DNA of 64,000 bases, filler included, from Stramenopiles sp. TOSAG23-6 (taxonomy: Eukaryota), in assembly GCA_900128565.1 (NCBI GenBank). It is 8 parts of 8 records of this genome, joined end to end, with 100 filler letters (N's around TTAATTAATTAA, not from the genome) between each part and the next. Parts side by side here need not be neighbours in the genome. Positions count along the whole stretch, not along the records: positions 16,195 to 24,186 come from LT636490.1; positions 24,287 to 32,267 come from LT636491.1; positions 32,368 to 40,310 come from LT636493.1; positions 40,411 to 48,352 come from LT636494.1; positions 48,453 to 56,388 come from LT636495.1; positions 56,489 to 64,000 come from LT636556.1; 2 more parts are not named here. The stretch is one strand, 5' to 3'. The notes under the pieces are model-generated. The model saw only the letters and a list, made by a program, of their open reading frames with translations. It was not told the origin of the DNA and searched no databases. Position 1 is the first letter of the stretch; the number at the start of each line of letters is the position of its first letter. The translations under genes were made by a program, and so were the position numbers. Below are positions 16,195 through 64,000 of the stretch, piece by piece.

Positions 16195-16281
16195 TTTTTT
16201 TTTTGTAATATTTTTGTTAGGTACAACATTTCGTACGAAAAAAAAAATTCGATTTTTCTGTAAAAAAAAAATAAAACATAC
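16195..16281 (-). mobile_element. Repeat-family intron, truncated by contig end
   Basis: Donor ATG|GTATGTTTT and core TTCGTACGAAATGTTGTACCTAAC. Confidence 0.75.
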
Positions 16282-18051
16282 CATCGTGAATGGTTGCATA
16301 GACTCGCTGGTCAACAAATTTATCTGAATCTAAATCTTCTTTTGTCATTGAAAATTTCCCTTCAGCAGCCCTACTGAAAAAATTCAAGATATCATCATCT
16401 TCTTTTTGCATTTGAGTTCCCGATGCTGTCGCAATTTCACTAACACATTCTACTGCTGCATATTTTTTAGCCCGTCGTATTACATGTTGAGATTCATCAT
16501 TTGTTCTTTTTCGTTTTGTCTTTATATCAAATGAACCATGCCAAATCTCTAATGCTTGTTTTGCCACAGTTGTAGCTGACTTGGCTTGATCCTCAACTTT
16601 CTGTAAACATGAATCAATTGCGTCAAAACTCAACGAATGCACTCTTAGATAAAATAACGCAGGATCTAAAAGTCCTTCACTAGGTGTAAAACAAAATTTA
16701 GGAAGTTGTCTTGGATGCGTAGGATTACTCATCATACTACTTACATCAACTACGAATGATAAAAGTAACATGTATTTTGGAAAAATATTTGAAAATTTAA
16801 AAAAAATTGTTAGGTACAAAATTTCGTACGAAAAAAAAANTTTAGACNAAAAAANTTNAAAAAAAATAAAACATACATTCGTTTTCTAATGAGTAATGGT
16901 GAATCATCCACTGACATTGGTGGAAGCTCAACGGGAACGCAATCAAAAGGATTTTGAAATGTAGGAACAAATCCATGATATAACAAATAAATTCGATTTG
17001 GATTTTCTCCATAATCTTCAAACACTTGATGTCCTGCTAAAGTTGTACGATCTGCAAATACTTTGAATACAAAACCAAAATCTTTTCCTTTTGTATTTTT
17101 TGTATTTTTTGTATTTTTTGCATCATTAGGGTTAGGGTTATTATTCACCAATTTGTGATATTTCAAAAATGAAGATCCAGAAGAATGTGATGATTCATCC
17201 ATATTAGGTTCATAATTAGTCATATCAGCCAGGGGGACAAGATACTTGTCTCCCTCTATTGTTAGTGCACGAGATCCTATTAGTGCATATACATAAAAAT
17301 ATGCATCAAATGTTAACCAATATGAAAAATTATTTTTTTCGTTTTTTTCGTTTTTTTCATTTTTTTCTTTTGGATTTGAATTTTTTAATATTGATACAAA
17401 ACCATCAGGACCAAATAAATGCATTAATCGTTTTAACAATGATTTATGATGGTTTTGTAGTTGTTTCTTTTGATCATTGGTTGCCATCGTGATTTCTTGA
17501 TCCTGAACTGCGGCAAGTTCAGCAGAAGAGAAATTAATTGGTAATGACACTTTTTTCGGTAATGTTTTTATATACGGATGATAATAAGAGTCATGCCCGA
17601 TGGCTATTTGAAGCATCAAAAAAAGAACTAGTTCTGTTTCATTATCAGATTTTAGATTCCTGAAAGCTTTCCGTAATTTACTTGACTTTGCTTGCTTAAC
17701 AAACGCTGCAATTGTATGGTGACAAATAATCTGCTTCATGGTGACGGATAGTAACAAAGAGTCTTTGGCGATATCCCGTGTAGCAAGTATACCCCTTCCC
17801 ATACCATCAAATTGTACAAGGCGTATGCCACTGGACAAATCGGCACCACCATCTTCTAACCATTGCATTAAGCCTATGCTATCAGCATCTTCAGTACCAG
17901 CAAGTTCTGTCTTCCAAGTATTTCGAATATCCTTAATTACGCTCTCATTTGTAGTTTCTTTTCTTTCATCTATTTGACAATAAATACAACGCCACGAAAG
18001 AAATAATTGTGTTGATAAAAATAATACATGGATAAGACAGCTATATCTCAT
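16282..18051 (-). CDS. SET-domain methyltransferase (SETD3/Rubisco-LSMT-like); exons 18051-16877 and 16769-16282, 3' truncated
   Basis: GRGILATRDI, YIKTLP, LVPLADMTNY, VFEDYG and LLYHGF motifs; removing 16770-16876 joins the two ORFs in frame. Confidence 0.85.
16770..16876 (-). mobile_element. Repeat-family intron, GT-AT (107 nt)
   Basis: AT|GTATGT...AAAATACAT|G; frame restored (RKRM/LLLS). Confidence 0.8.
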
Positions 18052-18255
18052 ACTTTGTGTATACGATGATGATGATGAGTAGATTTATTTTGGATTTATT
18101 GAATGTGTGTTGTAGTAGCGTAGTAGTAGGTCCTAGTAAAAGAAAAAAGAAGAAAAGAAGAAAAAAAAACAAAAGGACAAAAAAGTAACTGTCATTTTTA
18201 GCATACTGTACATATTGTTAGTATCATTTTTAGTGTCTCTCTACAATTACTTACA

Positions 18256-19389
18256 ATGAGTATTCTCGTCCGTCCATACAAACGAACAAAACATGAAGAA
18301 GAAGTTTTCCAACTTTTTCAACGAGTCTTTAGCGGCTTAGGTCCTGGTCTTATAATTACCAGCTTTTTAACTCTGAAAGATAGACTTTCCGGGAGACTTG
18401 CGTCAAATGACGAAAATCGACCTTGGATGGTTGGTGTTGATTGGGGTAAAGTGACTTGTGCTAAAACAGCAAAGCATGGTGACATGATTTTTTTACAATG
18501 GTTAAGAAGTAGAAAACCGCCTTGTCCGTGGGGTAGAACTTCGCGGTGGGAACAAAATACGTGTACTTCTGCAGCTGCAGCCGAAAATGGTCACTTAGAA
18601 GTATTGAAATGGGTTAGAAGTCAAAAACCACCTTGTCCTTGGGATGAACGTACGTGTTGGGAGGCAGCTAGGTCAGGCAACTTAAAAGTATTACAATGGT
18701 TAAGACACCAGAATCCACCTTGTCCATGGGATAAAGATACGTGTTCTATAGCAGCTGAATATGGTCATGTAGAAGTATTAAAATGGGTAAGAAGTCAAAA
18801 TCCACCTTGTCCTTGGGATGAACGTATGTGTCCGAGGGCAGCTAGTTCAGGTAACTTAAAAGTATTACAATTGGTAAGAAATCAAAATCCACCTTGTCCA
18901 TGGGATGAATGGACATGTAGTGAAGCAGCTCGTAAAGGTCACTTGGAAATATTAAAATGGTTAAGAAATCAAAATCCACCTTGTCCATGGGATGAAAGTA
19001 CGTGTAGTTATGCAACTGAAAATGGTCACTTAAAAGTATTGAAATGGTTGAGAAGTCAAAATCCACCTTGTCCATGGGATGCATGGACGTGTTCTACTGC
19101 AGCTGAAAATGGTCAATTAGAAGTATTACAATGGGTAAGAAGTCAAAATCCACCTTGTCCATGGAATGAACAAGCTTGTGAATTTGCAGCTCTAATGGGT
19201 TGGTTAGAAGTATTGAAATGGTTAAGAAGTCAAAATCCACCTTGTCCATGGAGTGATGAAACGTTAAGTGATGTATGCGAAATGAATGGGGGCTTGGAAG
19301 TATTACAATGGTTAAAAGAGGTAAAAGCACCAGGATTTGAAAATATGTCCGAATTCAATGATCGTTTTTTTTCCAGGGTGCAACCTTGA
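18256..19389 (+). CDS. Ankyrin-like repeat protein with nine 29-aa (87-bp) GHLEVLKWLRSQNPPCPWD repeats
   Basis: Intronless ORF; the tandem repeat is visible at both DNA and protein level. Confidence 0.85.
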   Translation: MSILVRPYKRTKHEEEVFQLFQRVFSGLGPGLIITSFLTLKDRLSGRLASNDENRPWMVGVDWGKVTCAKTAKHGDMIFLQWLRSRKPPCPWGRTSRWEQNTCTSAAAAENGHLEVLKWVRSQKPPCPWDERTCWEAARSGNLKVLQWLRHQNPPCPWDKDTCSIAAEYGHVEVLKWVRSQNPPCPWDERMCPRAASSGNLKVLQLVRNQNPPCPWDEWTCSEAARKGHLEILKWLRNQNPPCPWDESTCSYATENGHLKVLKWLRSQNPPCPWDAWTCSTAAENGQLEVLQWVRSQNPPCPWNEQACEFAALMGWLEVLKWLRSQNPPCPWSDETLSDVCEMNGGLEVLQWLKEVKAPGFENMSEFNDRFFSRVQP

Positions 19390-19685
19390 AGCGCCTGGTG
19401 CATTTTATTTTTTATTGCATCTGCGAGTTTTATGTTAGTATGTCCTAGTGTTGAATTAAGAGTGGATTTATTAATTTCTTCTTCTTTTTTTTTAACCGCT
19501 CATGGCGTATTCGACGCAAATTGAGTTTAAGAGCATCTTTAAAAATAAATTTATTTTTCTATTAATAAAAATAACGAAATAAAATTGGTCATATTCAAAA
19601 TTCATATATATATATAAATAATGTAAAACTGTAAGATTTATTATTTTTCAGAAAAAAACACAAACTATTTAAAAAAAGTAAATAA

Positions 19686-21040
19686 TTAATTATCTGAATC
19701 ATCACTTAGTAAATCAGCAATTAAATCTTCTTCACTATTTTTCGTCATTTCTTTCTCCGATAATTTGTCCATATTATTATCCTTCACTATACTAATAATA
19801 GCAATATTTTTTGCAAAATATCCTTGAGAATTCCAGCCTTTCATTTGCATAGTACTAAAAGGTCCATATTTCGTGTTTTTTGTATCGGCTTTCCATCTGT
19901 ATTCCCAAAGCGTTTTGTCATTGCCAGATTTCAAAATGTCTAAATTTTGAAAAATATTTCAAAAAAAAAAATAAAAAAATTTGTTAGGTACAAAATTTCG
20001 TATGAAACCAAAAAAAAAAAATCGAATTTGAAAAAAAAATAAAACATACCTGAATTTGTTTGATACGTGTCATCTTGTGATGCAAAATAATTTTTCTTTG
20101 ACTCTAAAATATCAATTGAAAATTCATTTGATTTTGAGGAATTACGTTCTAAATGTTGAATTTCAGATTGAATTTGTTTTCTAGATAATTCATAAATATG
20201 AGAATATGTATTTTGGAAAAATATTTCAAAAAAAATCAAAAAAAAATTGTTAGGTACAAAATTTCGTACGAAAAAAAATATAGATAAAAAATTCAATTTT
20301 GAAAACAAACAACCACCTTCGGATAATAGTGAATCAGCTGCTTCTGTGACAGTATATAATGATTTCTTTGCTATTTCAGCCGCTTTTACTTGAACTTGTA
20401 GCGATTCATCATTCGTGTCTATTTTTTTGTTTTTTTTTTGTTTTTTTTGTTTTTTTTGTAGAGACTTTGTCGTACCTATTATTTTCCCCAATCTTTGTAA
20501 AGAGGTCAATGCAGTTTCTCCAGGCTTTAGTATGTTAAATAAGGATGTTAGACACAACAACACATCAATCGGGGGTTTAGATGCTTCTTGTTCACTCCGG
20601 CGTTGATCAATAGCGTCTTTTGCTCGCTTTGTCGCAGCGTATTTACTATTAATATCTCCTGACGCTTCCTCTTCGTCTGCTTCATCAAGCCATCCGTCAC
20701 GAACATTACTTTCTTTTTCACTCCACTGATAGGAACCGTCTTCTAAAAAGCGACCTTCACTCATTTCTTCTTTCAAATTGAATGGTGTCATTGCAACATT
20801 ATCTTCCCTTAGACCATCGAGCGTCTCATCATCGCTAACTTCACCATCTACTGACGTAATTATACCATTTTTAACTTGTTGAAGACTTTTACTATCGACC
20901 TCTGCAAACTGTACTTTTTTCTTCTTTTTTTGAGGTGCTTCAACATTTTGAATAGAGACACTTTTGACATTTTCGTCAAGCTTTGCACGGGATCTTTTCT
21001 TTAATCCCGTTTTTGCAAACAAATCCACTTTAGGATTCAT
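19686..21040 (-). CDS. CD2BP2: CD2BP2/Lin1 (U5-52K) GYF-domain protein; exons 21040-20311, 20205-20050, 19939-19686
   Basis: TPFNLKEEMSEGRF, DGWLD, LKPGET, and a C-terminal GYF domain WEYRW..YGPFSTMQMKGW..QGYF. Confidence 0.85.
19940..20049 (-). mobile_element. Repeat-family intron, GT-AG (110 nt)
   Basis: CAG|GTATGT...AAAATTTAG|AC; joins the GYF exon in frame. Confidence 0.85.
20206..20310 (-). mobile_element. Repeat-family intron, GT-AT (105 nt)
   Basis: TT|GTTTGT...AAAATACAT|AT; gives EGGYSHIYE. Confidence 0.75.
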
Positions 21041-21288: not shown

Positions 21289-22440
21289 ATGAATGTCAAA
21301 GATGTTATTTCGTCACTTCTTTTTGTGATTATTTCATTGTTAGTTCTTATTGACACACTTGCAAAGTCAGTTGATGATGATGAATTGTTGGTCATAGATA
21401 TGGACGCTACTGCGTCCAAGAAATTGACTGAGCAACATATTCCAAATCAGCAACAAATTAAACATGAAAAGGAACCAAGTACTCCACCTCGTAATTTGAA
21501 TCAAATGTTTGGACAAAGTTTGCCTTATTTTGGTGGACCCGGTGGCCGATACTTTCCTCCTCCGCCACCACCACCACCAATGTACAATGAAGATGCGAAA
21601 AACGGTGAAATGGGAGAGATTGGAGCCCAAGCGTCTCCGTCTCAATTTGCTTCACGTTTCGTTCATGATCACTTTACTCCTCCAATACCTCCAACATCAA
21701 ATACTGAGCCAATGCTCCCAAAACATCCATCTATGTTTCATCCTCATCAACATGCGATGAAGATACATCCATCATCGGATATGTATCATGGATATTCACA
21801 AACATTTGCACAACCTGGAGTTCCTGGTGTATACGGAGAAATGAGAAATCCTAGTAGTAGTAATTCTGTCAGTTCTCAAGATGATTTGACAAAACAAAAA
21901 GATAAACAAAACCAGACACATGGAGCTCACCCCGGAATGTATCATCATAATATATATCAACCACCACCACAACAACAACAACCTCCACAAATGCCAGGAT
22001 ATAATCATAATATATATCATCAACAACCTCCACAAATGCCAGGATATCACCATCATCATAACATGTATCAACAACCTCCACAAATGCCAGGATATCATCA
22101 CCATCATGATATATATCAACAACAACCTCCACAAATGCCAGGATATCATCATCATAATATGTATCAACAACAACAAAAATATCAACCTTACCTTGGTGTT
22201 ATGCCATTAGAGCGTGATAGGGAACATATACGTTTTGTTTTTATCATTCATTTCAAAAAAATTTCAAAAAAATTTCAAAAAAAAAAAATATTTTTTTTTT
22301 ATAGTAAATTTTGTACCTAACAAATTTCATTTTTTTTATATGTTTTTCTAATATATATCAAGGCATTAAATAATCGAATTGCAGAATTACAAGAAGCTTT
22401 GACAAAAGCAGGTGGTCATGTAAACACTATGTCAAAATAG
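21289..22440 (+). CDS. Secreted/anchored Pro-Gln-His-rich repeat protein; exons 21289-22227 and 22357-22440
   Basis: N-terminal hydrophobic segment, PPQMPGYHHH repeats, and a short coiled-coil terminal exon in frame after intron removal. Confidence 0.7.
22228..22356 (+). mobile_element. Repeat-family intron, probably AT-AT (alternative GT-AT register 22232-22354)
   Basis: CAT|ATACGTTTT...TTTTGTACCTAAC...CTAATATAT|ATC. Confidence 0.65.
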
Positions 22441-35915: not shown

Positions 35916-35989
35916 GTACCCACTGAACCTTATTTTTTTTCGTACGAAATTTTGTACATAACGAAGTTGCTGGCTATTAATCAGTACAT
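35916..35989 (+). mobile_element. Degenerate family copy in intergenic/5' UTR sequence
   Basis: AT GTAC...TTTTCGTACGAAATTTTGTACATAAC...GTAC AT. Confidence 0.5.
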
Positions 35990-39550: not shown

Positions 39551-40252
39551 TTATTCAGACGATTTTGATAAAGATTTCGTTTCAGCCTTTGCTCGCTCAT
39601 ACCCCTGAGTAACGAAATCATAAACTCTTTTTCTCTGTTGCAATTCTTCTTCAAGAAATGCAATTTGTTCTTCCTCGAGCTCTTCTTTTTCTTTTTGCAT
39701 TTGCTCGCGTTGTTTCTTCGTCATGAAATATTTTGAATAAACATTTTGTCCTTTTGTAGAAATCGTTTTTTTAGTTTTTTTAGTTGTTTTAGTTGTTTTA
39801 GTTTTTAGTTTTTTTATAGCACTTCCCGTTTTTTGAAAAATATTTTGAAATTGACGATTCTTTCTAAATTTTCTATTTTGAGAATATTTTGGTATAGAGT
39901 TTGATAGCAAGGGAATAGTTGCTTCAGTTGGTTGGGTCCGGCTATTTTCACAGTTATTTGAAGACAACACGAAATCGTGTCTTCTGTGAAGAACATCACT
40001 AGAAACCTTTACTAATGTATTTTGGGAAAATATTTCAAAAAAAAATCGTTAGGTACAAAATTTCGTATGAAAAAAAAATCGGATTTGAAAAAAAATAAAA
40101 CATACACACATTGCGATAGTATCTAAATGCAATAACTGACTTAAAATACGTTTTACATATGATATATGCACACCAGATGATTCTGATATTTGTCGTACAA
40201 TGCGTTTTCCATCTATATGAGGTAATAATTTTTGCAGTGTCAAGTCCGCATC
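39551..40252 (-). CDS. NPRL2/Npr2-like exon (40252-40106) plus a downstream exon of uncertain linkage
   Basis: DLTLQKLLPHIDGKRIVRQIS resembles NPRL2; the consensus donor does not keep frame with the next exon. Confidence 0.5.
40015..40105 (-). mobile_element. Repeat-family intron, GT-AT (frame is kept only with a donor at 40107)
   Basis: Full consensus present. Confidence 0.7.
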
Positions 40253-40310
40253 ATATATTTTGGAAAAATATTTCAAAAAAAATTTAAAAAAATTTGTTAG
40301 GTACAAAATT
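40253..40310 (-). mobile_element. Repeat-family intron, 3' half (AT end), truncated
   Basis: GTACCTAAC...CCAAAATATAT|GAT. Confidence 0.75.
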
Positions 40311-40495: not shown

Positions 40496-42466
40496 GTCCC
40501 ACTCTTCATGAATTCGCTGATTTTTACCTTTTCGTTTTCTCTTTTTTAATTTCTCTTCTTGAGCCTTTTTTAACGCATCGGCCTTTAATTTTTCTCTTTT
40601 TGCATTTTCTCTGGCCCACGTACCATTATTTTGTTTCTCTCTTTTTCGTGCAATCATTTTTTCTAAACGAAGTTTTCTTTGTTTTTCACGAATTTTATCT
40701 AGATAACAAATTGTATCTATATTTATTTCACATTCAGTAAATTCAGATACATCAATTTTTTTCCCAGTTAATTCTGGCATTTTTGGTAATCGTAATAGAG
40801 CGAAAGCATTGGCTAATCGACCTAAATTTAGACTAGAGAATTTAAATATGTATTTTAGAAAAATATTTCAAAAAAAATCTAAAAAAAACTTGTTAGGTAC
40901 AAATTTTCGTATGAAAAATAAATTCAATTTCAAATTTAAAAAAAAATAAAAAAATAAAACATACATATGTCGGCATTCATGTTTCTTATACGATTGAACA
41001 AATGAGACAAAAGCACGAGTTCCTTTTTCCATTAAATCTCGATCTTTTATTGCCGCTTTGCGAATATATGACCAAATTTTTCCAGTTTGACTTTTTGTAT
41101 TTTTTTCAGAATCGTTTAAATCTTTTGAATTTTTTGAATTTTTGGATTTCCATTGAACAATTGGAACTTTTCGAGTTGTAAGAAATGGTATATATTCCAT
41201 TTCTTTATGCAATAAAAATACCAATGCTTTCCCATTACGTCCAGCACGAGCAGTACGTCCTACTCTATGAACAAAAAAGTCAGGATCTTGTGGAGGATCA
41301 AATTGAATAATCCAATCTACATCAGGGACGTCAAGACCTCGAGCTGCAACATCCGTACTCATTAAGATTGCAGGTCGATTTGAACATTGTAAGAATTTAT
41401 CTAAAGTTCCTGAGCGACGTTTTGGTACCATACGACCATGTAAAGAATATAACGCAACCTTTCCTACAATTTCTCTTGATCTGTTTTGAGATTGTTTTGA
41501 TTTTTTTGATTTTTTTGATTTTTGAACATTTTTATGCACAGATCCAAATAATTCAGGCATCACTGATTGAAGACCTCGGTAGAAATAATCCACAGCAGCA
41601 CAAGTAGAAAAAAATATAATAGCTTTCTTATTTGAATCTTGTGTCAATACTTCTGATTTGATAAAATCAATAAAATAATCCAATTTGTTATCTGGACGAC
41701 AATTAATATAAAAGTTTTGAAGTGCACTTGGTGTTTTCTGACTCGATCTATGAGCAGAAGTCTTTACTTTCAGACAAATATTTACAGGGTTTCGAAGTCC
41801 TGCACGAGCAAGAGCAACAACACCCTTTGTCTGTGTAGCAGAGAACAGACCTGTACGGCGTTGTTTTGGTAAAATTGTGAGTAAATCAGTAACTGTTTGG
41901 TGAAAACCCAAGTCTAACAAAACGTCAGCTTCATCCAAAACTAAAACTTCCAATTCTTTGACACTTATTGGAGCTTCATCACGTTGAAGTACATCAAGCA
42001 AACGACCTGGTGTTCCAATTAATACAGCAGCACCATTCTCTTTGACCTCATGGAAACTAGAACGAATATCTGTGCCACCAACCATTAGAGTAGCTGATAG
42101 TTGGGAACATACCTGTTTGAAAACACCATACGTCTGACGTGCTAGCTCTCGTGTGGGAGATACTATAATTACACCTACTTCATGCTTTTTCAGAGGTGTA
42201 GTACGTCTCTTTAATATTTCAATAGCCGGTAAAACAAATGCCAGCGTCTTTCCTGAACCAGTACAGGCTTCGACTGCAACATCTTTGTGTGTAAGAAAAA
42301 GAGGAATTGTTGTAGCTTGAACTGGCGTCATGTGTGTAAACCCTAAAGCGTCAACTGCAGCTAGGGTGCTTTCTGATATTGCTGGAATACAAGCATCAAA
42401 GCGAAATCGTTGCTTAGGATGTGTTCGTTTTGCCAACGGATTGGCATTTGCATCAGCAGATGCCAT
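40496..42466 (-). CDS. DDX55: DEAD-box RNA helicase DDX55/Spb4; exons 42466-40965 and 40847-40496, 3' truncated
   Basis: TGSGKT, DEAD, SAT and HRVGRTAR; splicing restores HECRHIFKFSSLNLGRLANAFALLRLPKMPEL. Confidence 0.93.
40848..40964 (-). mobile_element. Repeat-family intron, GT-AT (117 nt)
   Basis: AT|GTATGT...AAAATACAT|A; restores DDX55 motif spacing. Confidence 0.85.
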
Positions 42467-44201: not shown

Positions 44202-45250
44202 ATGTCACCAATTACAGTTCGCTCCGTTGCACGTATGTTTGGAGGTTTAGTAAAGCAATGTACTCATGACTCAACGTCTACCCGCACTGCTATGAACTTT
44301 ACAGTCTTTGTTCCCCCCCAAGCAAGTGAAAGTGTTCGCGTCCCTGTTTTGTATTATTTATCAGGATTAACTTGTACAGACGCAAATGTAAATGAAAAAT
44401 CGGGTGCACAACGGTATGCAGCAGAGCATGGGATTGCATTGGTTATGCCTGATACAAGTCCTCGCGGGCACCCACCTATTGCAGGTGAAGATGATTCATA
44501 TGACTTTGGTACAGGTGCTGGATTCTATGTGAATGCTACCACTCCAAACTATGCTGATAATTATAATATGTATGATTACGTTACCACAGAACTACCTGAA
44601 CTTATACAAGCTGAATTCCCTGTATCTAAGAGTTCTTCTATATTTGGTCATAGTATGGGAGGACATGGCGCTCTAGTATGCGCTTTAAAGAACCCAGGAA
44701 TGTACGTTTTTTTTNCAATTTTTTATCTTTTTTTTTTCGTACGAAATTTCGTACCTAACGAATTTTACAAAAAAAAATTTCACAATATATGTACAAATCT
44801 GTGTCTGCTTTTTCACCCATTTGTAATCCAACTCAATGCCCGTGGGGTGAGAAAGCTTTTAATGGTTATTTAGGTTCTGTTGATGCAGGGTTATCATATG
44901 ATGCGTCTGAACTAATGAAGAGTTATAATGGTCCCGAATTGCATTTATTAATAGATCAAGGATCTGATGATCAATTCTTACATGTACGTTTTTTTAGGGT
45001 TAGGGTTTTTATATATATATATTTTTTTTTTCGTACGAAATTTTGTACCTAATAAATGTAAAATTTTTGATATATTTTTTCAAAATTTCATGATCAATTA
45101 AAACCAGAAACTTTAAAGGCATCTTGTGCAGAAGTTCAACAACCACTGAATTTGAGGATTCATGATGGTTATGATCATAGTTATTATTTTATTGCGTCGT
45201 TTATGGAGGATCATATTCAACATCATGCGAAATATTTGAATAAACAATAA
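44202..45250 (+). CDS. ESD: S-formylglutathione hydrolase (esterase D); exons 44202-44701, 44791-44983, 45092-45250
   Basis: [38 protein letters not shown] and GYDHSYYF after splicing. Confidence 0.95.
44702..44790 (+). mobile_element. Repeat-family intron, GT-AT (89 nt)
   Basis: AT|GTACGT...CACAATATAT|GTAC; no AG anywhere in the intron. Confidence 0.85.
44984..45091 (+). mobile_element. Repeat-family intron, GT-AT (108 nt)
   Basis: CAT|GTACGT...AAAATTTCAT|GAT. Confidence 0.85.
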
Positions 45251-48221: not shown

Positions 48222-48261
<40 letters not shown>

Positions 48262-48271: not shown

Positions 48272-48303
<32 letters not shown>

Positions 48304-48452: not shown

Positions 48453-48517
48453 TCGTTAGGTACAAAATTTCGTACGAAAAATAAATTCGAAATTGAAAAA
48501 AATAAAATAAAAGATAC
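48453..48517 (-). mobile_element. Repeat-family intron, 5' part, truncated
   Basis: AT|GTATCTTTT...TTCGTACGAAATTTTGTACCTAAC. Confidence 0.75.
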
Positions 48518-49587
48518 ATGATTCTCGTATTTTGTTTGGTAATTCATCAAAAGAGCATTCGCTAATATCAATATCACATGACTTTTGAAGATCTCTTCTA
48601 ATTCTGGGTTGATCCCAGGCTTTTTTGTCAACTTCATGTAGAGAGACAGCAAGATTTTTAATCTCTGTTTCATTCTTCAAAGTTGTGTCTTTCAATGGTA
48701 TCATAGATTTTAAGAGAGGATTATATCCAAAATGTATAACTCTTGCAGCAATTTGTAAAAGTCCAAATATTGTGAAAAATATTTTTAGTAAAAATTTACT
48801 AAAAATTTGTTAGGTACAAAATGTCGTACGAAAAAAAAAAAGAAATGTAATGTTGAAATCGTACGAGAGCTTTAGGTAAGACCAGAGTAACCCCAATAGA
48901 TTCAAAATTTAAATGCCTTGGTCGAAACCCCTTCGAACCTAAGTTTACCCACATACAAAATTTAATGGATTCAGTAGCTTCTGTTATTCGCGCTTCAGTT
49001 TTTCCCTTTGCATATTTATTAGGATAAGTTAGGAGGTTGCCCGTGGCTCGATCAATTTTTGAAAGAATGAGGTCGTGTGTTTTATTAGTATATTCTTGAA
49101 AAGTTTTTATTCGAACCGTATCAGAGAAATTAATGGCATTTGTCAGCTGTACTTGAATATCCTTTGCAAAGCAATATGCATTATCACACTTTTCGAGAAC
49201 TTTTGATAAATCACTTTCTTCATCGTTGGTCCAGGCTGCAAGGAATTTGTTGATATCAGGCTCCCTTGACGTTTCTGGAATTGAACCACAAGCTATAAAA
49301 CGTAACCACTCTGCTCTGTCCTCTTTAGTAGCTACACTCTCTTGAAGAGACTGTCTTGCATAAGATTCAACCGTAGCATATTCTTCAAACTCTTCAGATA
49401 GTCGAACAAGTTCTTCTTGGCGAGCTTTGGCTTCTTCTTCAAGTCTCTTCGCTTCAGCTTCAGCTTTAGCTTTTTCATCTGCTGCTTTAGCTTCAGCTAT
49501 AGCCTTTGCTTCTGCGGCCTTTTCTTCAGCTTCAATCCTTGCTTCTTCTGCAAGTTCTTCTGGTGTCTTCTTCTTCTTTTTAGCCAT
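48518..49587 (-). CDS. DNAI7: CASC1/DNAI7 (IC97)-like axonemal protein; exons 49587-48865 and 48764-48518, 3' truncated
   Basis: K/E-rich N-terminus, EWLRFIACGSIP, FCMWVNL and LPKALGLLQIAARV after splicing. Confidence 0.7.
48765..48864 (-). mobile_element. Repeat-family intron, GT-TT (100 nt)
   Basis: CTC|GTACGA...CACAATATTT|GGA; frame restored. Confidence 0.72.
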
Positions 49588-56388: not shown

Positions 56389-56488
56389 NNNNNNNNNNNN
56401 NNNNNNNNNNNNNNNNNNNNNNNNNNNNNNNNTTAATTAATTAANNNNNNNNNNNNNNNNNNNNNNNNNNNNNNNNNNNNNNNNNNNN
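56389..56488. other. Artificial contig spacer
   Basis: N44-TTAATTAATTAA-N44. Confidence 0.98.
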
Positions 56489-59400
56489 CACATTTCGTGT
56501 CTCAGGAGTTGTATTTTCATTTCTTGTTTGAAAATATTTTTTTTAATTTTTTTGTTAGGTACAAAATTTCGTATGAAAATTTAAAATTTTCATTTCTTGT
56601 TTGAAAATATTTTTTTTAAATTTTTTTGTTAGGTACAAAATTTCGTATGAAAATTTAAAATTTTGTAATGATTAAAAATGTACATTGATTGTAGATCCTT
56701 CGGCACCTAATGCAAATGTATTGTAGAAAAATATTTCAAAAAAAAACTAAAAAAAATCGTTAGGTACAAAATTTCGTACGAAAAAAAATTCATACAAAAA
56801 AAAAATAAAACATACATATTTGATACTGCTTTTGCTTTTATACACTGATCATATTTATAACAACGAAAAGCATGGAATGCATATGCATATTGTCGTTGTG
56901 CTACGTACCATAATTTTGAATGTAAGAATTTCGCAGCTGCTTCAAGATTTCCATATTTTGTCTGCGTATTCATAGATACATTGCGAGCAGTTTTGTACCA
57001 AAAGTGTAAGGCTCGTCCTAATTTCTTCTGTATCATTCCTCTCAGGGCAACGGAGAAAAGAAGAGCAGCTATTTGACGTGTATATTCACAATTTCTATAA
57101 TCCATAGTCACCATTTGCCAAATATCAAAGGTATGTGACACAATTCTTTTATTATAATGTCTCAATCTACTGAAAATTGATTTCAAAGCGATTTTCTTTT
57201 CAATTTTTACAAGACGATTTTGTTTTGTTACCTGACACCAATGTTGATAAAAACAATAAACAGTTTTATGGAGAAGTCTATTTAAGATTTTAGGAATGAT
57301 GACAGATGAAAGTATTGTGAAAAATATTCTTTTTTTTTTTTTTAAATTTGTTAGGTACAAAATTTCGTATGAAAAAAAAATTTGAAATTCATGATGAAAA
57401 CGTACAATGTGTCGACGTTTCAAATATTCATTTTTCATTAATTCTGAACCTAATTTCCACTGTGCAAATCCTTGGCTTTTGCTTACTAGAGACATGCGAC
57501 GTACTATGAGATTCATTTTATGAATTTGTGCATTATACATGTATTTTGGGAAAATATTTTTTTTTTTTACCGAAAATAAAAAAAAAATGTTAGGTACAAA
57601 ATTTACTATGAAAAAAAAAATTCGAAATTCAATTTTGAAAACGTACAATCCCATAGATAATATCTGATCTCTCCAGACATTAAAAGCTAAACGTTTTTTA
57701 TTCAAAACTTTGCGCTGACTTAATGTCTTTATACAAGTAACAGACCAACAATATTTTAATACATGTATTTTGGAAAAATATTTCAAAAAAAAAACTAAAA
57801 AATTTGTTAGGTACAAAATTTTCAAAAAAAAAAAACTTCGATTTTTTTTTTACCGAAAAAAAAAAAAATAAAACATACATCGTGTTCTTTGTATGCATTT
57901 ATAAGTTCTGATTCATTTTCACATTTTTTCTGAACTTCTATTTTATTTTTCCATTTATACAATGAAACTTTTAATGTACAACAACGTTTTAAATATGCAG
58001 TTTGGTGAATGTTAATCAGTGTGAGGAATGTGAAATATTTCAGTGCGTTACTTTGACGAGATAATGCTACACTTAATGCGGAATTTTTTTTCTTTTCCTG
58101 TAAAACAGCAAATTTACACATTGATTTTGATTTTTCTTTACACTCTAAAAGCATTTGAGAATATTTGTTCTTTAGTTCTTCTAAGGCATTTCGTGTGTTA
58201 GCACTAGACAATTCACGTTCTTTGTGTAAAGTAACTCTCATATTACGAAGCTCAGCCCTTTGATGTTCATATGCTACAGCATATGATATAATGTAAGAAA
58301 ATATGTCAAGTTTCACATGTATGAGGTACAGAATTTTCTATGGAATTCTGAAAAATTGAGTTTGTACCAAATTTCGTACGTAACAAACATGCTGAAAACG
58401 TACATGGTGCTCCAAGTGCAATAGCTCCATTCGTTTCAATTGATAATTCTTTACTCCATAATTTCATTTTGAGAGCAATTGATTTTAATACATCTAATTC
58501 TTTACTATTTTCATCTGAATCTAAATGAACATTTGGACTATTTTCATCTGAACTTGGATGTATTGCAGAAAATATATATTTTTTTTAGTAAAACAAAAAA
58601 TCGTTAGGTACAGAATTTCGTACAAACAAAAAAATATTTGAAATGTATCATTGAAACAAACATGTATTGCAGAAAGAACAGCATTTTCTGATACTATTTT
58701 AGTATTTTTATGTATTTGATGATAAATCATATTTGTAATTTCATTTACTCTAGTCTCTAGTGAAGCTAAATGATGAATACTAGCTTCTCGTTTTGCATCA
58801 AACTTTGTCTTTTGGATAATTTGTACTACATCGTTTTGGTGTTGTTTCTCGAGTGAACGTATAGACGTCTCCTTTTCTGTAATTGCTTCAAGTTTTTCGC
58901 GTCGTCTGTTTTGTGAAAAAAATATTGTTTTTTCAATAGAACAAATTCGTTAGGTATGAAAAAAAATTTTTGAAAAAAAAAAAATTCAAAAAATTCAAAA
59001 AATTCAAAAAATTCAAAAAAAAAAAAATAAATATAAAATGAATGATGAAAACAAACAATCGACTTTCATATTCTTCCTCCAAATGTTCGCATTTTTTCAG
59101 AGATTCTTTCTTCAAATCTTGAAAAGTGACATGTAATGAATCAATTTCTTTAGAATGTTGAGACATCGTATTTTTCATACGCTCTATAGAAATAATCCTT
59201 TCTTCTTCATGCACTACGTATTTTGGAAAAATATTTCAAATTATTTTTTGTTAGGTACAAAATTTTTATAAAAAAAAAATTCATATAAAAAAAAATAAAA
59301 CATACACTTTTAAAGAAGTAACTAATTTTTCCTGTGCGTCTTTGATTCGTGTGCATTCTATTTGATGTTCCTGTACATATATTGTGAAATTTTTTTTTAA

Positions 59401-60740
59401 TCAAAAAAAAAAATTGTTAGGTACAAAATTTTTTTACAAAAAAAAAAAAAAAATATACATTTGAAATGAAGGATAAAAACGTACGATATTGGAAAATCTT
59501 TTTTCCCATTCTTCAATTTCGGCATTTTTTAACGCTTCCATTTCTTCAAATTTATTATTATATTCTGCTACTAACGCAGATCTCTCTTTATTATGAACAC
59601 TTACAAGTTTTTCTATTTTTGTATGGTGGACTTTTTCAATCTTTTCTATCTTTATAGTATATATAGTTGCATTTTTTTCTATTGTGTCTTTTAATTCATG
59701 TATTTTGGAAAAATATTTCAAAAAAAAATTGTTAGGTACAAAATTTCGTATGAAAAATAAATTCGAAATTAAAAAAAAATAAAACATGCATCTATCTCTA
59801 CACGTAGCAATTTTTCCTCGGATTCCCTCTCTGCCATTAGCTTACTCATATCAGCTGCATGCTCAAGTGATAGGAGACCCCTTAAAGTATCTTCAGCTTG
59901 TATTCTCGATTTATGTTGTTCTTCTTTTGATTTTTGATATTCCAGCTCTCGATTTTTTTCTCTAACTTTCATTTCTTGTATTTTTGCTTTCCAAGTTTTA
60001 TTAATTTCAATAATATTTTGCTCATTTTTATGTTCTTGTTGAATCAATGACTCGTTTAATTGTTTTATAGAAGATTCTAATTTAGCATTCAATCCTGGCC
60101 AATCTTTTTCTTGTATGTGTTGCATAACTTTCCGCATTTTTGCTATATCTTTTGCTTCTTGGTCAGCTAAGCGAGATAGTTCCCTTTCATGTATTGCGCT
60201 GCTTTCCTTTCTTTTCTGTCGTTCTGATATAATCTTTTCTTTATACTTTTTTATTTCATTTTGATGCTTTTTCATCACATTGTCTAATTCATTTTTTGCT
60301 TCTCTACGTAATTCTATTCGTAGATCTGTTAAAGACTCTTTGGTTGCTTCTATTTCACAAGCATATTCTTCGGAAGCAGCCTCCCTCAATGCTTTAGCGG
60401 TAGAAACTTGGCTTTTAAGTTCTAATTCTTTTTTCGATAATTCTTCACATCTTCTCTTAGAAGTGTTTAATTTTTTTTGTATATCTAAATGAAAATATTC
60501 CGTGTGCTCCAAGCCCTCCAAAATTTTAGCGTTGTGGGCGTATTTCATTTCTATTTCCTTTTGATAATTACATTCTTGCTCTAGCAGAGCATGTTTTTCT
60601 TCTGCGTCTCTAACTGCAGATATATCTAAATGAGTAGTATCTAAATGAGAATTATCCATTGCAAAATCGCCTACATGTGAGGAAAATGTAGAGGTTTCCA
60701 CAGATGGAACTTTCGATGTGTCTACGTGTGAGGGAATCAT
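56489..60740 (-). CDS. Large coiled-coil protein with Sfi1-like W repeats; 11 family introns, 3' truncated
   Basis: Exons 60740-59790, 59697-59485, 59376-59306, 59215-59057, 58905-58662, 58557-58404, 58285-57879, 57762-57647, 57538-57406 and 57309-56816 keep phase through nine consecutive junctions; the last two junctions are ambiguous. Confidence 0.75.
56519..56683 (-). mobile_element. Repeat-family intron with internal ~73-bp tandem duplication
   Basis: AT|GTACAT; branch motif and acceptor region present twice; acceptor placement uncertain. Confidence 0.6.
56716..56815 (-). mobile_element. Repeat-family intron, GT-AT (alternative AT donor at 56819)
   Basis: AT|GTATGT...ACAATACAT|TT. Confidence 0.7.
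57310..57405 (-). mobile_element. Repeat-family intron, GT-TT (96 nt)
   Basis: ATT|GTACGT...CACAATACTT|TCA. Confidence 0.7.
57539..57646 (-). mobile_element. Repeat-family intron, GT-AT (108 nt)
   Basis: TT|GTACGT...AAAATACAT|G. Confidence 0.78.
57763..57878 (-). mobile_element. Repeat-family intron, GT-AT (116 nt)
   Basis: GAT|GTATGT...AAAATACAT|GTA; joins two ORFs. Confidence 0.8.
58286..58403 (-). mobile_element. Divergent family intron, GT-AT (118 nt)
   Basis: AT|GTACGT...GTACCTCAT...ATTATAT|CA; frame restored. Confidence 0.7.
58558..58661 (-). mobile_element. Repeat-family intron, GT-AT (104 nt)
   Basis: CAT|GTTTGT...GCAATACAT|CCA. Confidence 0.78.
58906..59056 (-). mobile_element. 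Repeat-family intron, GT-AG (151 nt)
   Basis: TT|GTTTGT...CATACCTAAC...CACAAAACAG|A. Confidence 0.78.
59216..59305 (-). mobile_element. Repeat-family intron, GT-GT (90 nt)
   Basis: GT|GTATGT...AAAATACGT|AGTG; using the adjacent AG gives a stop. Confidence 0.72.
59377..59484 (-). mobile_element. Repeat-family intron, GT-AT (108 nt)
   Basis: ATC|GTACGT...CACAATATAT|GTA. Confidence 0.78.
59698..59789 (-). mobile_element. Repeat-family intron, GC-AT (92 nt)
   Basis: GAT|GCATGTTTT...AAAATACAT|GAA. Confidence 0.75.
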
Positions 60741-60969
60741 TATTCTACAATAATATCAGAGAGGATCAGAGAGAGAGAGTGTTAAAACTTTTTCAAATTT
60801 TGATGGGAAAAAACTAAATTTGAAATTGAATTTTTTTTAAAATCCATCGGCCATGCGTTAAATTCAAATTGCTATTTATGAACTGTATTTAATTACTACG
60901 GTAGTATTTGTGTAATTGTGTTCTTTCAAAGCAAACATAAACGCAAACATAAACACATAATATACGACA

Positions 60970-61569
60970 ATGATAAACTTTCAAAAGCTACTTACTATAT
61001 CACTGGCATTCACTTTTGAAAGTGGATTAGCAGTAATCCCTTTTGAAAGCCTTGATGGAGCAACCCCGGAGGAACAACTGTTGACGCTAGAAGCGGAAAT
61101 AAGAAGTCTGAGACTGCAATTGACCCCGGAGAAAAAACACAAAGCGACTGTACATGCAAGAACAACACAGAATGAGTTGGCACTGGAAACTGGATTTGTT
61201 AATTCGAATAAGAAAGGTGTTTCGACTGCACCGACAAAAAGAGTAACATTCAGTCGTGAAACAAAGCAACAAGAAGAAGTCAAAAAGCCGCCGACGGCGA
61301 GAACAGAAAAGATGAAAGGATCTACGGGATTAAGGCTCGCGGGAGCAGAAGATAGATATGGAAATTTTCACATCCATGGAGGAAATTTTTTCCATGACCA
61401 TGTAAACACTTATTTGGCAGAGAAAGCTGCTAAAGGGCGCGGGGAGCCAACGGAGTTGGAGAAGATAAGAACGCTCATTGAAAACCTGGAGAACATGCAG
61501 ACACGAAAGCTCTTTGAAGACTTGAGGAAGAAAGCACATACGGTCGGATTGCGCAAAATCCTGCAATAA
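60970..61569 (+). CDS. Secreted hypothetical protein
   Basis: 199-aa ORF with a signal-peptide-like start. Confidence 0.6.
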   Translation: MINFQKLLTISLAFTFESGLAVIPFESLDGATPEEQLLTLEAEIRSLRLQLTPEKKHKATVHARTTQNELALETGFVNSNKKGVSTAPTKRVTFSRETKQQEEVKKPPTARTEKMKGSTGLRLAGAEDRYGNFHIHGGNFFHDHVNTYLAEKAAKGRGEPTELEKIRTLIENLENMQTRKLFEDLRKKAHTVGLRKILQ

Positions 61570-61730
61570 TAGAGTCATACGTCTTTATATTTTTATTCAT
61601 CATGTGATATATTGAACATAGCGTTTCAAAATTCATAGTTGCTTCTTTTATTATAGAATGTTTCTTTGAAAAAAAAAAGAATAAAAAAAAGTTCAAATTA
61701 TCTTTTATAGTCTGATACCACGTAAACATA

Positions 61731-62753
61731 TCATCCAATACGAGTTGCGCTAATATCTAAGTTAGGTGCACCTGGAGCCTTCATTGCTGTTTCTAGCAAT
61801 GTCTTTGTCTTAATTTCGTCACTACTTGGCAAACCCTTAGCCTTTTGAGATTGGTCAAACATTATTTTCCGTATGGCTGCTTGAGTTTCTGAGTTATACG
61901 TCTCAAGTTTTTGGGTCGAATCAACTTTCGTACAGTCAATTTCTTGATGGCCTTTTAAAACACTTTTCCACCAAGTAGAAACTTTTTTATCTAAAGTTAG
62001 AGTTATGATTCGTTCACTTGTTTGGAAAATGGAATCTTCAATTTGCCATAAGCATTCAGAAGGTCGCACTGCCATATCAAAGACTCCATCCAAAAGACGA
62101 ACATTCGATGATTCTGAATTATCTAGTCTAATACAAATCTTATCTGTAGAAAATGCACAATTGATGTCCTTACTTTTTGTTCCAAAAGGCACAGGAATGT
62201 TCACAGTGACGTCATCGAGAGTTTGAGTCCACCAATAGTTAGATGTAATTCCTCCATTGCCGATAGGAATTTGTTTGCCATCATCTGTATACTTTATAGA
62301 GGGTACAACCGATTTCTGACATGACACAAAAGACTTGCACTGATTTGCTTTTGTGGATTCTAAGGAGAAATCAGCATTACTCAAACTAGAGACGTCCTGT
62401 ATTGGTCGTTTTAACTGAGCTGCTTTTTCTTTTTTCACACTTGATGGAGTTACTTGCCTCGACGTTTCTATTTTTTTTACATTTTTTTCGACGGAAGAGA
62501 TACCTTTATGTGATATAGGAGATGCATCAGGATGTGGTTTCAAATGCAATTTACGGAAAGAACGAAGGAGAAGAGACTCTGCAACACCTGGCGGAAAACC
62601 CATGTTTGCACCTCCAGGTGGTTGAACTACGTAGAAGTCTGTCCGACGATGCAAGAAACTGAAAAATGTCTCAAGTAGTGGTTCAATACCTCCTTGCTGT
62701 TGTGCTATTCCTAGAAGTACATCATCATACCGTCCGTCACTGGGATCTGGCAT
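61731..62753 (-). CDS. NudC family protein (NudC-N plus CS domain)
   Basis: LLETFFSFLHRRTDFY, NYWWTQTL, WWKSVLKG and AIRKIMFDQ.QK..GLPSSDE. Confidence 0.9.
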   Translation of the reverse strand: MPDPSDGRYDDVLLGIAQQQGGIEPLLETFFSFLHRRTDFYVVQPPGGANMGFPPGVAESLLLRSFRKLHLKPHPDASPISHKGISSVEKNVKKIETSRQVTPSSVKKEKAAQLKRPIQDVSSLSNADFSLESTKANQCKSFVSCQKSVVPSIKYTDDGKQIPIGNGGITSNYWWTQTLDDVTVNIPVPFGTKSKDINCAFSTDKICIRLDNSESSNVRLLDGVFDMAVRPSECLWQIEDSIFQTSERIITLTLDKKVSTWWKSVLKGHQEIDCTKVDSTQKLETYNSETQAAIRKIMFDQSQKAKGLPSSDEIKTKTLLETAMKAPGAPNLDISATRIG

Positions 62754-62996
62754 TTTACAAAAATATAAATTTGATTCAATCTCAAATAACCAACTTGTAT
62801 AGTACGATGAATGAAACAAAAAAATATACTGTCAAATTCATGACACGTGGCGGTGGCGTGCAGTCAAAATTTATCAAAATTTGACGGACTACAGCTGCTA
62901 CTTACTGTGTATGTTTACAGTATGGCATATATGCATAAGATTATCCAATGAAAAATTAGAAATTAAGAATCTGATACTCATTGAATAATTATAATC

Positions 62997-63906
62997 ATGA
63001 CTCCATCTCAGATGCGAGCAATAGCTTCGTTAGACTCTACCTTTGAAAAATCTAGTAAAGAATCAAAAAAGAGGAACCAACCCAGTAGTTCGAAGCGCAG
63101 TGACTCAGGAAAGAAGAAACGTCGCCGTAATACAGCTGCTAATAGTAAAAGATCTAGTGGCACTTCAAATAGTCCACACAAAGATCAACACCATGACCAC
63201 GACATATCTCATGTACAATCCACGGGAGAACTCTCAAATGATAGTAAAATAAAACAGGTAGAATATCTGAGTGATAGTGAGTATGCCGCGGCATCTACAT
63301 ACGTAAATAAATTTTTAGAAACAACCCTAAGTAGCATAGATAAACCTGGAATGCGACCTGGAGACGTAATTAAATCAAAGCTACAGAATAAATTAGTGTT
63401 ATTAGATAATAAAGAGAAGGATGTATCTCTAAGTAAAATGCTTAATATGAATCAAAAAACTGGAGGTGTTGAGATGCGTAATGTTGGTCTACATGGCGAA
63501 GGTGTAAAAGGAGATGGCAGACCTCTGTGGGGTTGTACGAAACGCAATAGTATTTTTCTACAGATGTTTCAAAGTGAAAAAAAATACGATTCTCAAGAAT
63601 CTGCCACTGGAAGATGCAATCAAAACATTAAACACTATGAGAATTTGCATCGCATATGTATGTTTTATTTTTTTTTAATTTCGAATTTATTTTTTCGTAC
63701 GAAATTTTGTACCTAAGGAATTTTTTTTTCAAATATTTTTCCAAAATACATGGATACAGTATGCTAGTGACCTTTACAATATAGTGAGTGGCAAAAAACA
63801 CGAAAGGGGAAAAGCAACCCAAAAAGAACGAAAACCATGGACAAAAGTAGAGAAAGAGGAAATAAGTGCAGCACTTGCTGAAGCATTTCTTTCTGCCGAC
63901 TTGCAT
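62997..63906 (+). CDS. POP4: RNase P/MRP subunit POP4 (Rpp29); exons 62997-63657 and 63752-63906, continues beyond window
   Basis: Splicing gives LHRIWIQYASDL, followed by LSADLH at the next donor, matching the Rpp29 LH..W.QY and ADLHG motifs. Confidence 0.75.
63658..63751 (+). mobile_element. Repeat-family intron, GT-AT (94 nt)
   Basis: AT|GTATGT...AAAATACAT|GG; creates the conserved Trp codon. Confidence 0.83.
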
Positions 63907-64000
63907 GTATGTTTTATTTTTTTTTCAATTTTGAATTTATTTTTCGTACGAAATTTTGTACCTAACAAATTTTAGTTTTTTTTTTTTTGAAATATTTTTC
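63907..64000 (+). mobile_element. Repeat-family intron, cut by window end
   Basis: CAT|GTATGTTTT...GTACCTAAC...GAAATATTTTTC. Confidence 0.78.

Follow-up and report, generated by a model that had tools for sequence, protein, structure and literature searches.

We describe here a family of short repeated elements that interrupts protein-coding genes of Stramenopiles sp. TOSAG23-6 in a 64-kb window (the whole stretch of DNA analysed, 64,000 nucleotides) and that is probably removed from the transcripts as introns ending mostly in AT rather than AG. The window is no single locus. It consists of eight contigs of ~8 kb strung together (c1, 1–7997; c2, 8098–16094; c3, 16195–24186; c4, 24287–32267; c5, 32368–40310; c6, 40411–48352; c7, 48453–56388; c8, 56489–64000) in the order of falling size, the pieces shrinking stepwise from 7997 to 7936 bases, with N44-TTAATTAATTAA-N44 linkers that recur every ~8.1 kb (7998–8097, 16095–16194, 24187–24286, 32268–32367, 40311–40410, 48353–48452 and 56389–56488). 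Because separate contigs were joined, the genes on either side of a linker are not neighbours. The first two contigs are identical at 7996 of 7997 positions, share the same scattered single N and are a duplicate record or a collapsed allele pair; neither has a copy of the element, and the polycystin-like and cyclic-nucleotide-gated channel genes that they carry are free of introns. The genes of the window lie close together and follow the standard code, most of them as single long open reading frames (ORFs), and a scan of the window with Rfam at the gathering threshold returned no match. Among the interrupted genes, Pfam recognized ESD, a DEAD-box helicase of the DDX55/Spb4 kind, a Casc1_N gene (DNAI7), a GYF-domain gene (CD2BP2-like) and a Glycos_transf_1 gene (GT4). 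These five hosts had already been named in an initial annotation made from the sequence, and each is supported by Pfam; for POP4, which it also listed, searches of single exons found no such family.

The family is built on one element of 89–175 nt, with ~33 copies over the six contigs between 16195 and 64000 and in at least 12 genes. The core, TTTCGTACGAAATTTTGTACCTAAC, matched 25 times at up to three mismatches against 0.00 expected from 100 shuffles, and the 3' motif 13 times against 0.01 expected. The 11-mer TTGTACCTAAC gave 34 matches at up to one mismatch, 32 of which were judged from their context to belong to the family, while the matches at 23081–23091 and 32471–32481 were set aside as chance; scans for ACCTAAC and GTAYGTTTT added two decayed copies. 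Our tally of 33 agrees with the number first estimated and comprises 24 complete copies, one copy with an uncertain 3' end, seven cut copies (five 5' parts and two 3' parts, severed at contig or window ends) and one intergenic remnant. Against the 25 copies initially counted as complete, 24 are so in our hands; the copy with the uncertain 3' end is that at 56683..56509. Seven contig ends between 16195 and 56489 sit inside element copies, as expected because a high-copy repeat breaks assembly. All 32 genic copies lie in the sense orientation relative to the flanking ORFs. This upholds the sense-only rule proposed earlier, but not its single antisense exception, as the remnant concerned (35930–35975) is intergenic and lies on the plus strand, upstream of a plus-strand gene.

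Pairwise identity among the copies ranges from 0.50 to 0.94, with a median of 0.69 and a nearest-neighbour identity of up to 0.94; the family is therefore a mixture of young and old copies. Contig c6 was compared with a source-like DNA run, an independent seawater metagenome and two metatranscriptome libraries from one sample. In the source-like run, 4964 of 99615 contigs map to this 7.9-kb contig and are stacked on the bins that contain the element, and 4210 contigs of the metagenome map to it and are stacked likewise, which implies thousands of copies in the genome. Joints in which the last base of one element is followed by the first base of another (40495 to 40848) were seen in 43 contigs of the source-like run, 39 of the metagenome and 1–3 of the RNA libraries; they are tandem copies sharing one AT, or circles. 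In addition, the end of c6 (48213–48352) holds a long T-rich stretch that closes with TTTTTTGAAATATTT on the plus strand, after a possible short first exon (ATG at 48167). This stretch, left out of the 33, may be a decayed plus-strand copy.

When the copies are cut out by a single rule, from the GTAYGT start to 2 nt beyond the conserved ...ATAC or ...ATAT end, the joint frame is open at 24 of the 24 complete copies. Among the first 20 copies tested, 17 link the longest upstream frame to the longest downstream frame (one-third expected by chance) and all 20 joints are open, and the four copies defined later joined open frames as well. In the minus-strand gene at 60755–56489 on c8, removal of 11 copies leaves 1003 codons with no stop, in line with the restored frame previously noted across consecutive junctions of one gene. 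Reading through the element would meet an in-frame stop within it in 18 of the 24 copies. When ORF gaps were surveyed on the six contigs, every same-strand break other than gene starts and intergenic spacers coincided with a family copy. The survey is blind to short in-frame introns and to introns in untranslated regions; among detectable introns, it bears out the earlier observation that none lies outside the family. Translational bypassing of the copies was considered and rejected, as their insertion sites cover every codon phase and the repeat that flanks them measures 2 nt, not a codon.

For ESD and DDX55, the junctions can be placed against relatives. Exon 1 of ESD aligns with residues 9–164 of 3fcx_A, the split codon corresponds to residue 165 and exon 2 resumes at 166; exon 2 then ends at residue 228/229 of 3i6y_A and exon 3 starts from 230. 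The relatives P0001–P0003 read KNPGMYRSVS over junction 1, and FxExQLKPE is read by relatives at junction 2. In DDX55, removal of the element yields HECRH-IFKFSSLNLG, which aligns without gaps to P0122 (IFKFSKLNLG) and P0123 (IFRFAQLDLG). Alignment with homologues is exactly colinear in both genes at the GT..AT cuts; the initial annotation had named orthologue junctions at GT-AG as an outcome that would count against it. Elsewhere, the exons of the GT4 gene gave weak alignments with solved structures that begin 5 residues inside the exon and do not fix the junction; a search with the middle exon of DNAI7 gave none among longer proteins, and among representatives two repetitive proteins, useless for colinearity; the protein atlas returned only generic DEAD-box clusters; and searches for transcript-derived, junction-spanning proteins of the same species gave, for ESD exon 1, proteins of other species as the best match, 77–80% identical, and, for DDX55, the public gene model alone.

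The best database match to the DDX55 exon is the gene model P0121, with a label beginning GSMAST32, which is 99% identical over the aligned columns and is hence the same or a conspecific locus. The next matches are 64–67% identical, and named relatives, including Chrysoparadoxa and brown algae, 44–47%; the matches point to a marine heterotrophic stramenopile of MAST-3-like affinity. In P0121 (locus 40421–42466, minus strand), a GT-AG junction has been forced, with the AG lying 15 nt into exon 2, and the conserved FKFS(S) is lost. The model has five further internal gaps where relatives keep residues, and its end translates the next element, so that this public DDX55 model appears, by comparison with its relatives, to be mis-spliced. 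Exact-pattern scans for the core motif in metagenome, genome and viral contig collections found nothing. Comparison of the DDX55 exon with metagenome contigs gave 33 loci, the best of them 45% identical; these include no close relatives, and hence no orthologous empty or filled sites.

The copies are distributed as follows, on the minus strand unless stated. On c3, a 5' part (GTATGTTTT at 16281) truncated by the contig start (16195..16281) is followed by a complete GT..AT copy with exon end AT in a SET-domain gene (16770..16876), a complete GT..AG copy with exon end AG in the gene with the GYF domain (19940..20049), and a complete GT..AT copy with a decayed 5' end (GTTTGTTTT) and exon end TT (20206..20310). 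A complete but decayed plus-strand copy runs from AT to AT (ATACGTTTT), with exon end AT (22228..22356), and the GT4 glycosyltransferase gene contains three complete GT..AT copies, two with exon end AT (22815..22929 and 23231..23365) and a decayed one with exon end GG (23684..23807). A 3' part at the end of c4 (32214..32267) is followed by an ORF of 1728 codons. Contig c5 starts with a 5' part preceded by the exon of a PPR gene (32368..32433) and ends with a 3' part (40253..40310); between these lie a complete GT..AT copy, exon end TC, that links 247 and 437 open codons (33683..33784), the 45-nt plus-strand intergenic remnant, which retains the central part only (TTGTACATAAC; 35930..35975), and a complete GT..AT copy with exon end GT (40015..40105). 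On c6, a 5' part at the contig start (40411..40495) directly follows the ...EEWD of DDX55, where relatives go on, and the complete GT..AT copy of the same gene lies at 40848..40964; ESD carries two complete GT..AT copies on the plus strand, intron 1 (44702..44790) and intron 2 (44984..45091), the latter containing TTAGGGTTAGGG.

The Casc1_N/DNAI7 gene on c7 carries a 5' part at the contig start (GTATCTTTT; 48453..48517) and has a complete GT..TT copy with exon end TC (48765..48864). On c8, the copy at 56509..56683 is tandemly duplicated internally over ~74 nt, so that its branch-like motif is repeated; its 3' end (AA) is uncertain, with 7 codons after it. The other copies in the 1003-codon gene are complete or decayed: GT..AT at 56716..56815; GT..TT, exon end TT, at 57310..57405; GT..AT, exon end TT, at 57539..57646; GT..AT, exon end AT, at 57763..57878; a decayed GT..AT copy with altered branch motif and exon end AT at 58286..58403; GT..AT at 58558..58661; a decayed GT..AG copy, exon end TT, at 58906..59056; GT..GT, exon end GT, at 59216..59305; GT..AT, exon end TC, at 59377..59484; and GC..AT, exon end AT, at 59698..59789. 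The plus strand of this contig carries a complete GT..AT copy with exon end AT and the branch motif TACCTAAG (63658..63751) and a copy severed by the window end (63907..64000). The copy at 58558..58661 lies between 14-nt direct repeats, TTTCTGCAATACAT (58558–58675), far above the usual 2 nt, and the upstream repeat is coding (..VLSAIH).

Two side observations concern the window itself. Short interstitial dimers of the TTAGGG type occur at 17126, 22489, 25364 and 44994, in addition to TAGGGTTAGGGTTT at 47997–48010; one dimer falls within the second ESD intron, and another shortly precedes the start of an 802-codon ubiquitin-protease-like gene. They may represent telomere-like seeds or serve as a promoter motif. 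At 42592–44120, a contig of the seawater metagenome (X3) links 42591 to 44121 with ~52 other letters between them; the U-box/Sel1-repeat gene located there is absent in the X3 strain.

The 24 complete copies comprise 17 with GT-AT ends, one GC-AT, one AT-AT, two GT-TT, one GT-GT and two GT-AG. The initial annotation had arrived at the same numbers of AG (2), TT (2) and GT (1) 3' ends and of GC and AT donors (1 each); its AT ends and GT donors are lowered here from 20 to 19 and from 23 to 22. Canonical GT-AG is possible at 2 of the 24 copies. Short repeats leave some freedom of register: without any change to the messenger RNA (mRNA), 9 of 23 copies could be written as AT-AC and 13 of 23 as TG-CA, and the 5' end is constant in the unshifted register only. 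No in-frame, stop-free AG acceptor exists inside any of 23 elements, and the TT and GT ends have neither an AT nor an AG in frame within 12 nt. If the acceptor is taken as the first AG located 8 nt or more beyond CTAAC, the frame survives in 5 of the 20 CTAAC copies, two of which are those ending in AG. In seven copies (22929, 23365, 40964, 48864, 56815, 57405 and 57878, named by their 5' ends), that AG sits inside the element, 5–34 nt before the inferred end and mostly directly behind a T tract, and its use would shift the frame. Nested or two-step splicing through an internal AG was rejected, given that such an AG occurs in only 7 of 20 copies.

In 16 of 23 copies, the dinucleotide that closes the intron is the same as the one that closes the upstream exon (p = 0.0007 by permutation of exon ends among copies); with copy 33784 included, the match is found in 16 of 24. 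It is specific to the locus and extends to three of the five non-AT ends, with AG/AG at 20049, GT/GT at 59305 and TT/TT at 57405; the other two of these five, at 48864 (TC/TT) and 59056 (TT/AG), do not match. The GTAT(G)TTTT start is mirrored, as its reverse complement, in the ...AAAATAC with which the element closes once the final two bases are left off. It thus looks like a small non-autonomous DNA transposon of the miniature inverted-repeat transposable element (MITE) type, with short inverted ends and a 2-bp target duplication that prefers AT. The unusual 3' end is therefore explained by the last two intron bases being the target duplication: within the window, it is well supported that AT is most simply the preferred target-site duplication and not a new 3' signal as such.

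Alignment and logos show the anatomy of the element. The 5' end is GTAYGTTTT, often followed by ATTTTTTTT; positions +1 to +9 carry 1.0–2.0 bits, and the GT at +1 and +2 carries 1.8 bits over 30 5' ends. A variable T-rich middle, often with the palindrome AAATTCGAATTT, leads to a branch-like region, TTTTTTTCRTACGAAATTTTGTACCTAAC, which contains the palindrome TTTCGTACGAAA and is followed by a T tract. The 3' end is GAAATATTTTTCCAAAATAC and two further bases; the 3' inverted repeat, in the form ATATTTTTC(C/A)A(A/C)AATAC, lies downstream of the T tracts. GTATGTTTT and AAAATAC are reverse complements of each other along 7 nt, with a bulge at G5. This inverted repeat is short, and it is weaker in a second subfamily with GTACG starts and ...TTTCACAATAY 3' ends (GTACGTTTT and CACAATAT), for which the folds show no terminal helix. 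Within the branch-like region, TACCTAA is invariant (2.0 bits) in 22 of 23 copies, with its last A located 32–51 nt from the 3' end. It is intact in copies 22228, 23807, 57878, 59305 and 59484 although the adjacent palindrome has decayed, and this retention in old copies suggests that the motif has been under selection since insertion. The yeast branch site UACUAAC resembles TACCTAA, and the yeast donor GUAUGU resembles GTAYGT. Compared with U2-type introns in general, the copies have the GT donor consensus (22 of 24 start with GT), the branch motif and the T tracts, and lack the 3' AG, as 2 of 24 end in AG and no register gives AG at the other 22.

Based on these features, the element is probably an introner, that is, a MITE-type transposon that survives in coding exons through its removal from the pre-mRNA as an intron, and the U2-type spliceosome is the likely agent of that removal. 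Upon insertion, the transposon would duplicate a 2-bp target, usually AT, and the piece excised later would be the element together with one copy of the duplication, so that the original reading frame is restored exactly. GTAYGTTTT would serve both as the 5' inverted repeat and as the U2-type 5' splice site, with the 5' cut falling before the GT borne by the element. TTTTGTACCTAAC would act as a yeast-like branch site, preceded by T-rich filler with small palindromes and followed by T tracts; on a spliceosomal route, the branch is expected to form at the A of TACCTAAC, joined to the first G of the intron. The 3' cut would fall after the dinucleotide supplied by the target, which is AT in 19 of 24 copies and otherwise TT, GT or AG, and would be placed by its position relative to the conserved 3' motif, not by an AG. 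We favour recognition of ATATTTTTC..AATAY itself, with cleavage two bases further, because the fold z-scores are weak and one subfamily lacks the helix; RNA structure as the main determinant of the 3' cut was rejected on the same two observations.

The family and the need for its removal at non-AG ends are solid at the sequence level. This much of the original proposal, an Introner-like family spliced without AG, has stood, that is, the repeated sense-oriented family and the required precise non-AG removal; the splicing itself is our best inference. Spliceosomal removal is preferred because all 32 genic copies are in sense orientation, GTAYGT and TACCTAA are signals of one strand, T tracts are present, and DNA contigs run into the element unbranched. 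In particular, contigs of both the source-like run and the independent metagenome continue from ESD exon 1 for 35 nt into the element with no branch, and this crossing occurs at single-copy depth (~41 in X1 and 6.9 in X3), from which it follows that the element-bearing form is the DNA form.

Several points weigh against this reading. The inverted repeat is just 7 nt long with a one-base bulge, and the folds are weak, with z-scores from -4.0 to +0.9 and values below -2 in 4 of 23 copies. The exon and intron dinucleotides differ in 8 of 24 pairs, so the duplication is not clean. Seven copies hold a plausible branch site, T tract and AG internally, where a normal spliceosome would be expected to use the AG. 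In the spliceosomes of yeast and humans, the first and last intron bases pair as G-G or A-C, a rule with which a 5' G and a 3' T are at odds. In the RNA libraries, one contig (157 nt, depth 3.3) runs from ESD exon 1 for 65 nt into the element, unspliced, and the ratio of RNA to DNA depth (X6/X3) is 0.15–0.19 in the element bins and 0.19 over 23 unique bins, with no depletion. The two metatranscriptome libraries contain 11–12% of the sampled c6 words, and no spliced joint was present among the 15 joints listed of 143. Their cover is thin and even over genes (~1.3 mean word depth in the 23 unique bins) and includes 48035–48212, upstream of a start codon. The libraries were therefore taken as uninformative, or mildly negative, on splicing; they look like DNA carry-over, and unspliced RNA would look alike.

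Another route to the same mRNA, by a different register or chemistry, appears unlikely. The cuts could lie 2 nt to the left, producing AT-AC introns where an AT duplication is combined with an ATAC end, or an endonuclease could act on the paired ends, where a helix would leave a hairpin with a 2-nt 3' overhang, followed by ligation. AT-AC ends are a known workable pair and are allowed at the 9 copies mentioned above, but the shift turns a 5' end that is GT within GTAYGT in 22 of 24 copies into a variable one (AT, AG, TT, GT, TC and others). The family resembles U12-type (AT-AC) introns in its non-AG 3' ends and in the same 9 copies; unlike them, it has no ATATCCTT-like 5' site, its 5' consensus being GTAYGTTTT and not (A/G)TATCCTT. 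The branch site of U12-type introns lies ~10–26 nt from the 3' end, whereas the branch-like motif here is 32–51 nt away. For the nuclease version, a terminal helix of six pairs (exon -2 and -1 and intron +1 to +4 with the last six intron bases) does form in 7 of 23 minimum-energy folds. However, the GTACGTTTT/CACAATAT subfamily forms none, and cleavage of paired ends would leave the invariance of TACCTAA and the sense-only orientation unexplained.

It is highly improbable that the introns are ordinary GT-AG introns in which splicing runs from the GT of the element to the closest AG that can be used in the exon that follows, with proteins a few residues shorter. The first in-frame AG after ESD intron 1 is 44 codons on, and its use would delete a block that is colinear with solved structures; in DDX55, the AG used by P0121, 15 nt into exon 2, costs the FKFS(S) present in both relatives. 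For 20 of 23 copies, an in-frame, stop-free AG can indeed be found in the downstream exon, +1 to +47 codons away, but any exon will by chance contain in-frame AGs this far in; three copies have none within 150 nt, and in 15 of 20 copies the frame is lost if the AG that first follows the branch motif is used.

We give an even fainter chance to removal at the DNA level, in which the element would be excised precisely from an expressed copy of the genome, like the internal eliminated sequences of ciliates or excising transposons. The inverted ends and the short flanking repeat, one copy of which would leave too, recall the ciliate sequences, in which one repeat copy leaves with the element, and the tail-to-head joints (43 and 39 contigs) could be circles, although tandem copies explain them equally. 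Excision through inverted ends should ignore orientation, yet all 32 genic copies are sense; the strongest conservation is on GTAYGT and TACCTAA, which are signals of one strand; and DNA contigs at single-copy depth retain the element at its border. In addition, the genes show the standard code and long open frames, and the dimers present are of the TTAGGG type, which is not the telomere unit of well-studied ciliates. That the elements are never removed, leaving host genes broken or tolerant of insertion, is scarcely credible: the sole RNA-library contig over a junction is unspliced and three copies (20310, 57405 and 57646) are a multiple of 3 nt long and free of in-frame stops, but 18 of 24 copies would stop translation within the element, 11 insertions in one gene all restore the frame when removed, the conserved single-copy ESD and DDX55 would be truncated within their folds, and decay explains neither the sense-only orientation nor the frame statistics.

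Beyond the introner interpretation itself, we can speculate, with somewhat less than even confidence, that a single MITE family built nearly the whole intron complement of this uncultured marine lineage, and that the second step of its spliceosome is set by position, 2 nt past the 3' motif and 32–51 nt from the branch point, accepting any terminal dinucleotide and skipping internal branch-tract-AG sites. If true, this would be a natural case of AG-independent choice of the 3' splice site alongside fully canonical 5' and branch signals. The introner reading itself would add one more independent lineage to those, a tunicate and a parasitic dinoflagellate, where bursts of transposition have forced or exploited a relaxed 3' splice-site rule. 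The case is unusually clean, with one family, a canonical donor and branch and only the acceptor deviating, and isolates the question of how a 3' site is found without AG. It also illustrates directly how the target preference of a transposon, AT, can become the dominant intron end of a genome. In practice, gene finders bound to GT-AG mis-build genes in this lineage, as in the DDX55 model, and the proteomes and functional surveys of these abundant ocean grazers may hold systematic errors.

Among the closest known systems are the canonical introners, which, as reportedly described by Huff et al. in 2016, take one splice site from the target duplication. The introners of Micromonas, Aureococcus, Symbiodinium and Chrysochromulina carry one splice site on the element and obtain the other from duplications of 3–9 bp that supply AG, resulting in GY-AG introns; in the Chrysochromulina family, the 5' site is carried and the 3' site comes from the duplication, the same arrangement as here (PMC9860276). 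As in these introners (PMC9860276), the present family would be a non-autonomous DNA transposon whose element is removed with one duplication copy, leaving the mRNA unchanged; unlike in canonical introners, the duplication is 2 bp and mostly AT rather than AG. As the survey of introners began from annotated introns, a non-AG family could have been missed by it (PMC9860276).

The initial annotation knew of no genome in which GT-AT is the norm, and as a claim of no precedent this was overstated, given the larvacean tunicate Fritillaria and the non-canonical introns of Amoebophrya. In two species of Fritillaria, AT is the commonest 3' intron end, at 44% in F. pellucida and 34% in F. borealis, and a YAY triplet, often TAC, stands before the 5' site and again at the intron end, where it forms the 3' site; the main intron classes of F. 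borealis are AG/AC and AG/AT, in many families (PMC13326754). Long-read complementary DNA (cDNA) shows the splicing of these introns, which the U2-type spliceosome carries out, and their odd ends are bound by U2AF subunits that have been duplicated and have diverged (PMC13326754; PMC11282704). Inverted ends, target duplications and an exon-end motif repeated at the intron end are shared with our family (PMC13326754; PMC11282704). In contrast to Fritillaria, where the 5' ends are non-canonical too and families are many, there is here one family with a strong GTAYGT donor and an invariant branch motif. Furthermore, splicing is shown by cDNA in Fritillaria, a tunicate; in the present protist, whose genes otherwise have almost no introns, it is probable.

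In the marine protist Amoebophrya, more than 60% of the introns of strains A25 and A120 are non-canonical and some are repeated elements; the introners have inverted repeats of 8–20 nt and direct repeats of 3–5 nt across the exon/intron borders, with no dominant dinucleotide pair and no family-specific signals found, the authors proposing a hairpin that joins the exon ends (PMC7789003). Our family likewise belongs to a marine protist and consists of repeated introns with non-GT-AG ends (PMC7789003); unlike in Amoebophrya, GT-AT dominates, the 5' and branch signals are classical and the terminal helix is weak. Polarella and euglenids also have transposon-derived introns with non-canonical ends; the nonconventional introns of euglenids lack a polypyrimidine tract and have stably paired ends (PMC11282704). 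Our copies share with them the non-canonical ends and the duplication-like border repeats (PMC11282704), and differ from them in that T tracts are abundant, the element being T-rich throughout, the branch motif is present, and the ends pair weakly, with fold z-scores mostly near zero. For stramenopiles, no transposon-derived non-AG introns were found in the literature searched, where passages from papers on marine stramenopile genomes make no mention of intron ends; the supplementary tables of the 2022 introner survey might list such a family. Therefore, transposon-derived introns without a 3' AG are known elsewhere, and what is new is this variant, unusually clean, in a stramenopile lineage.

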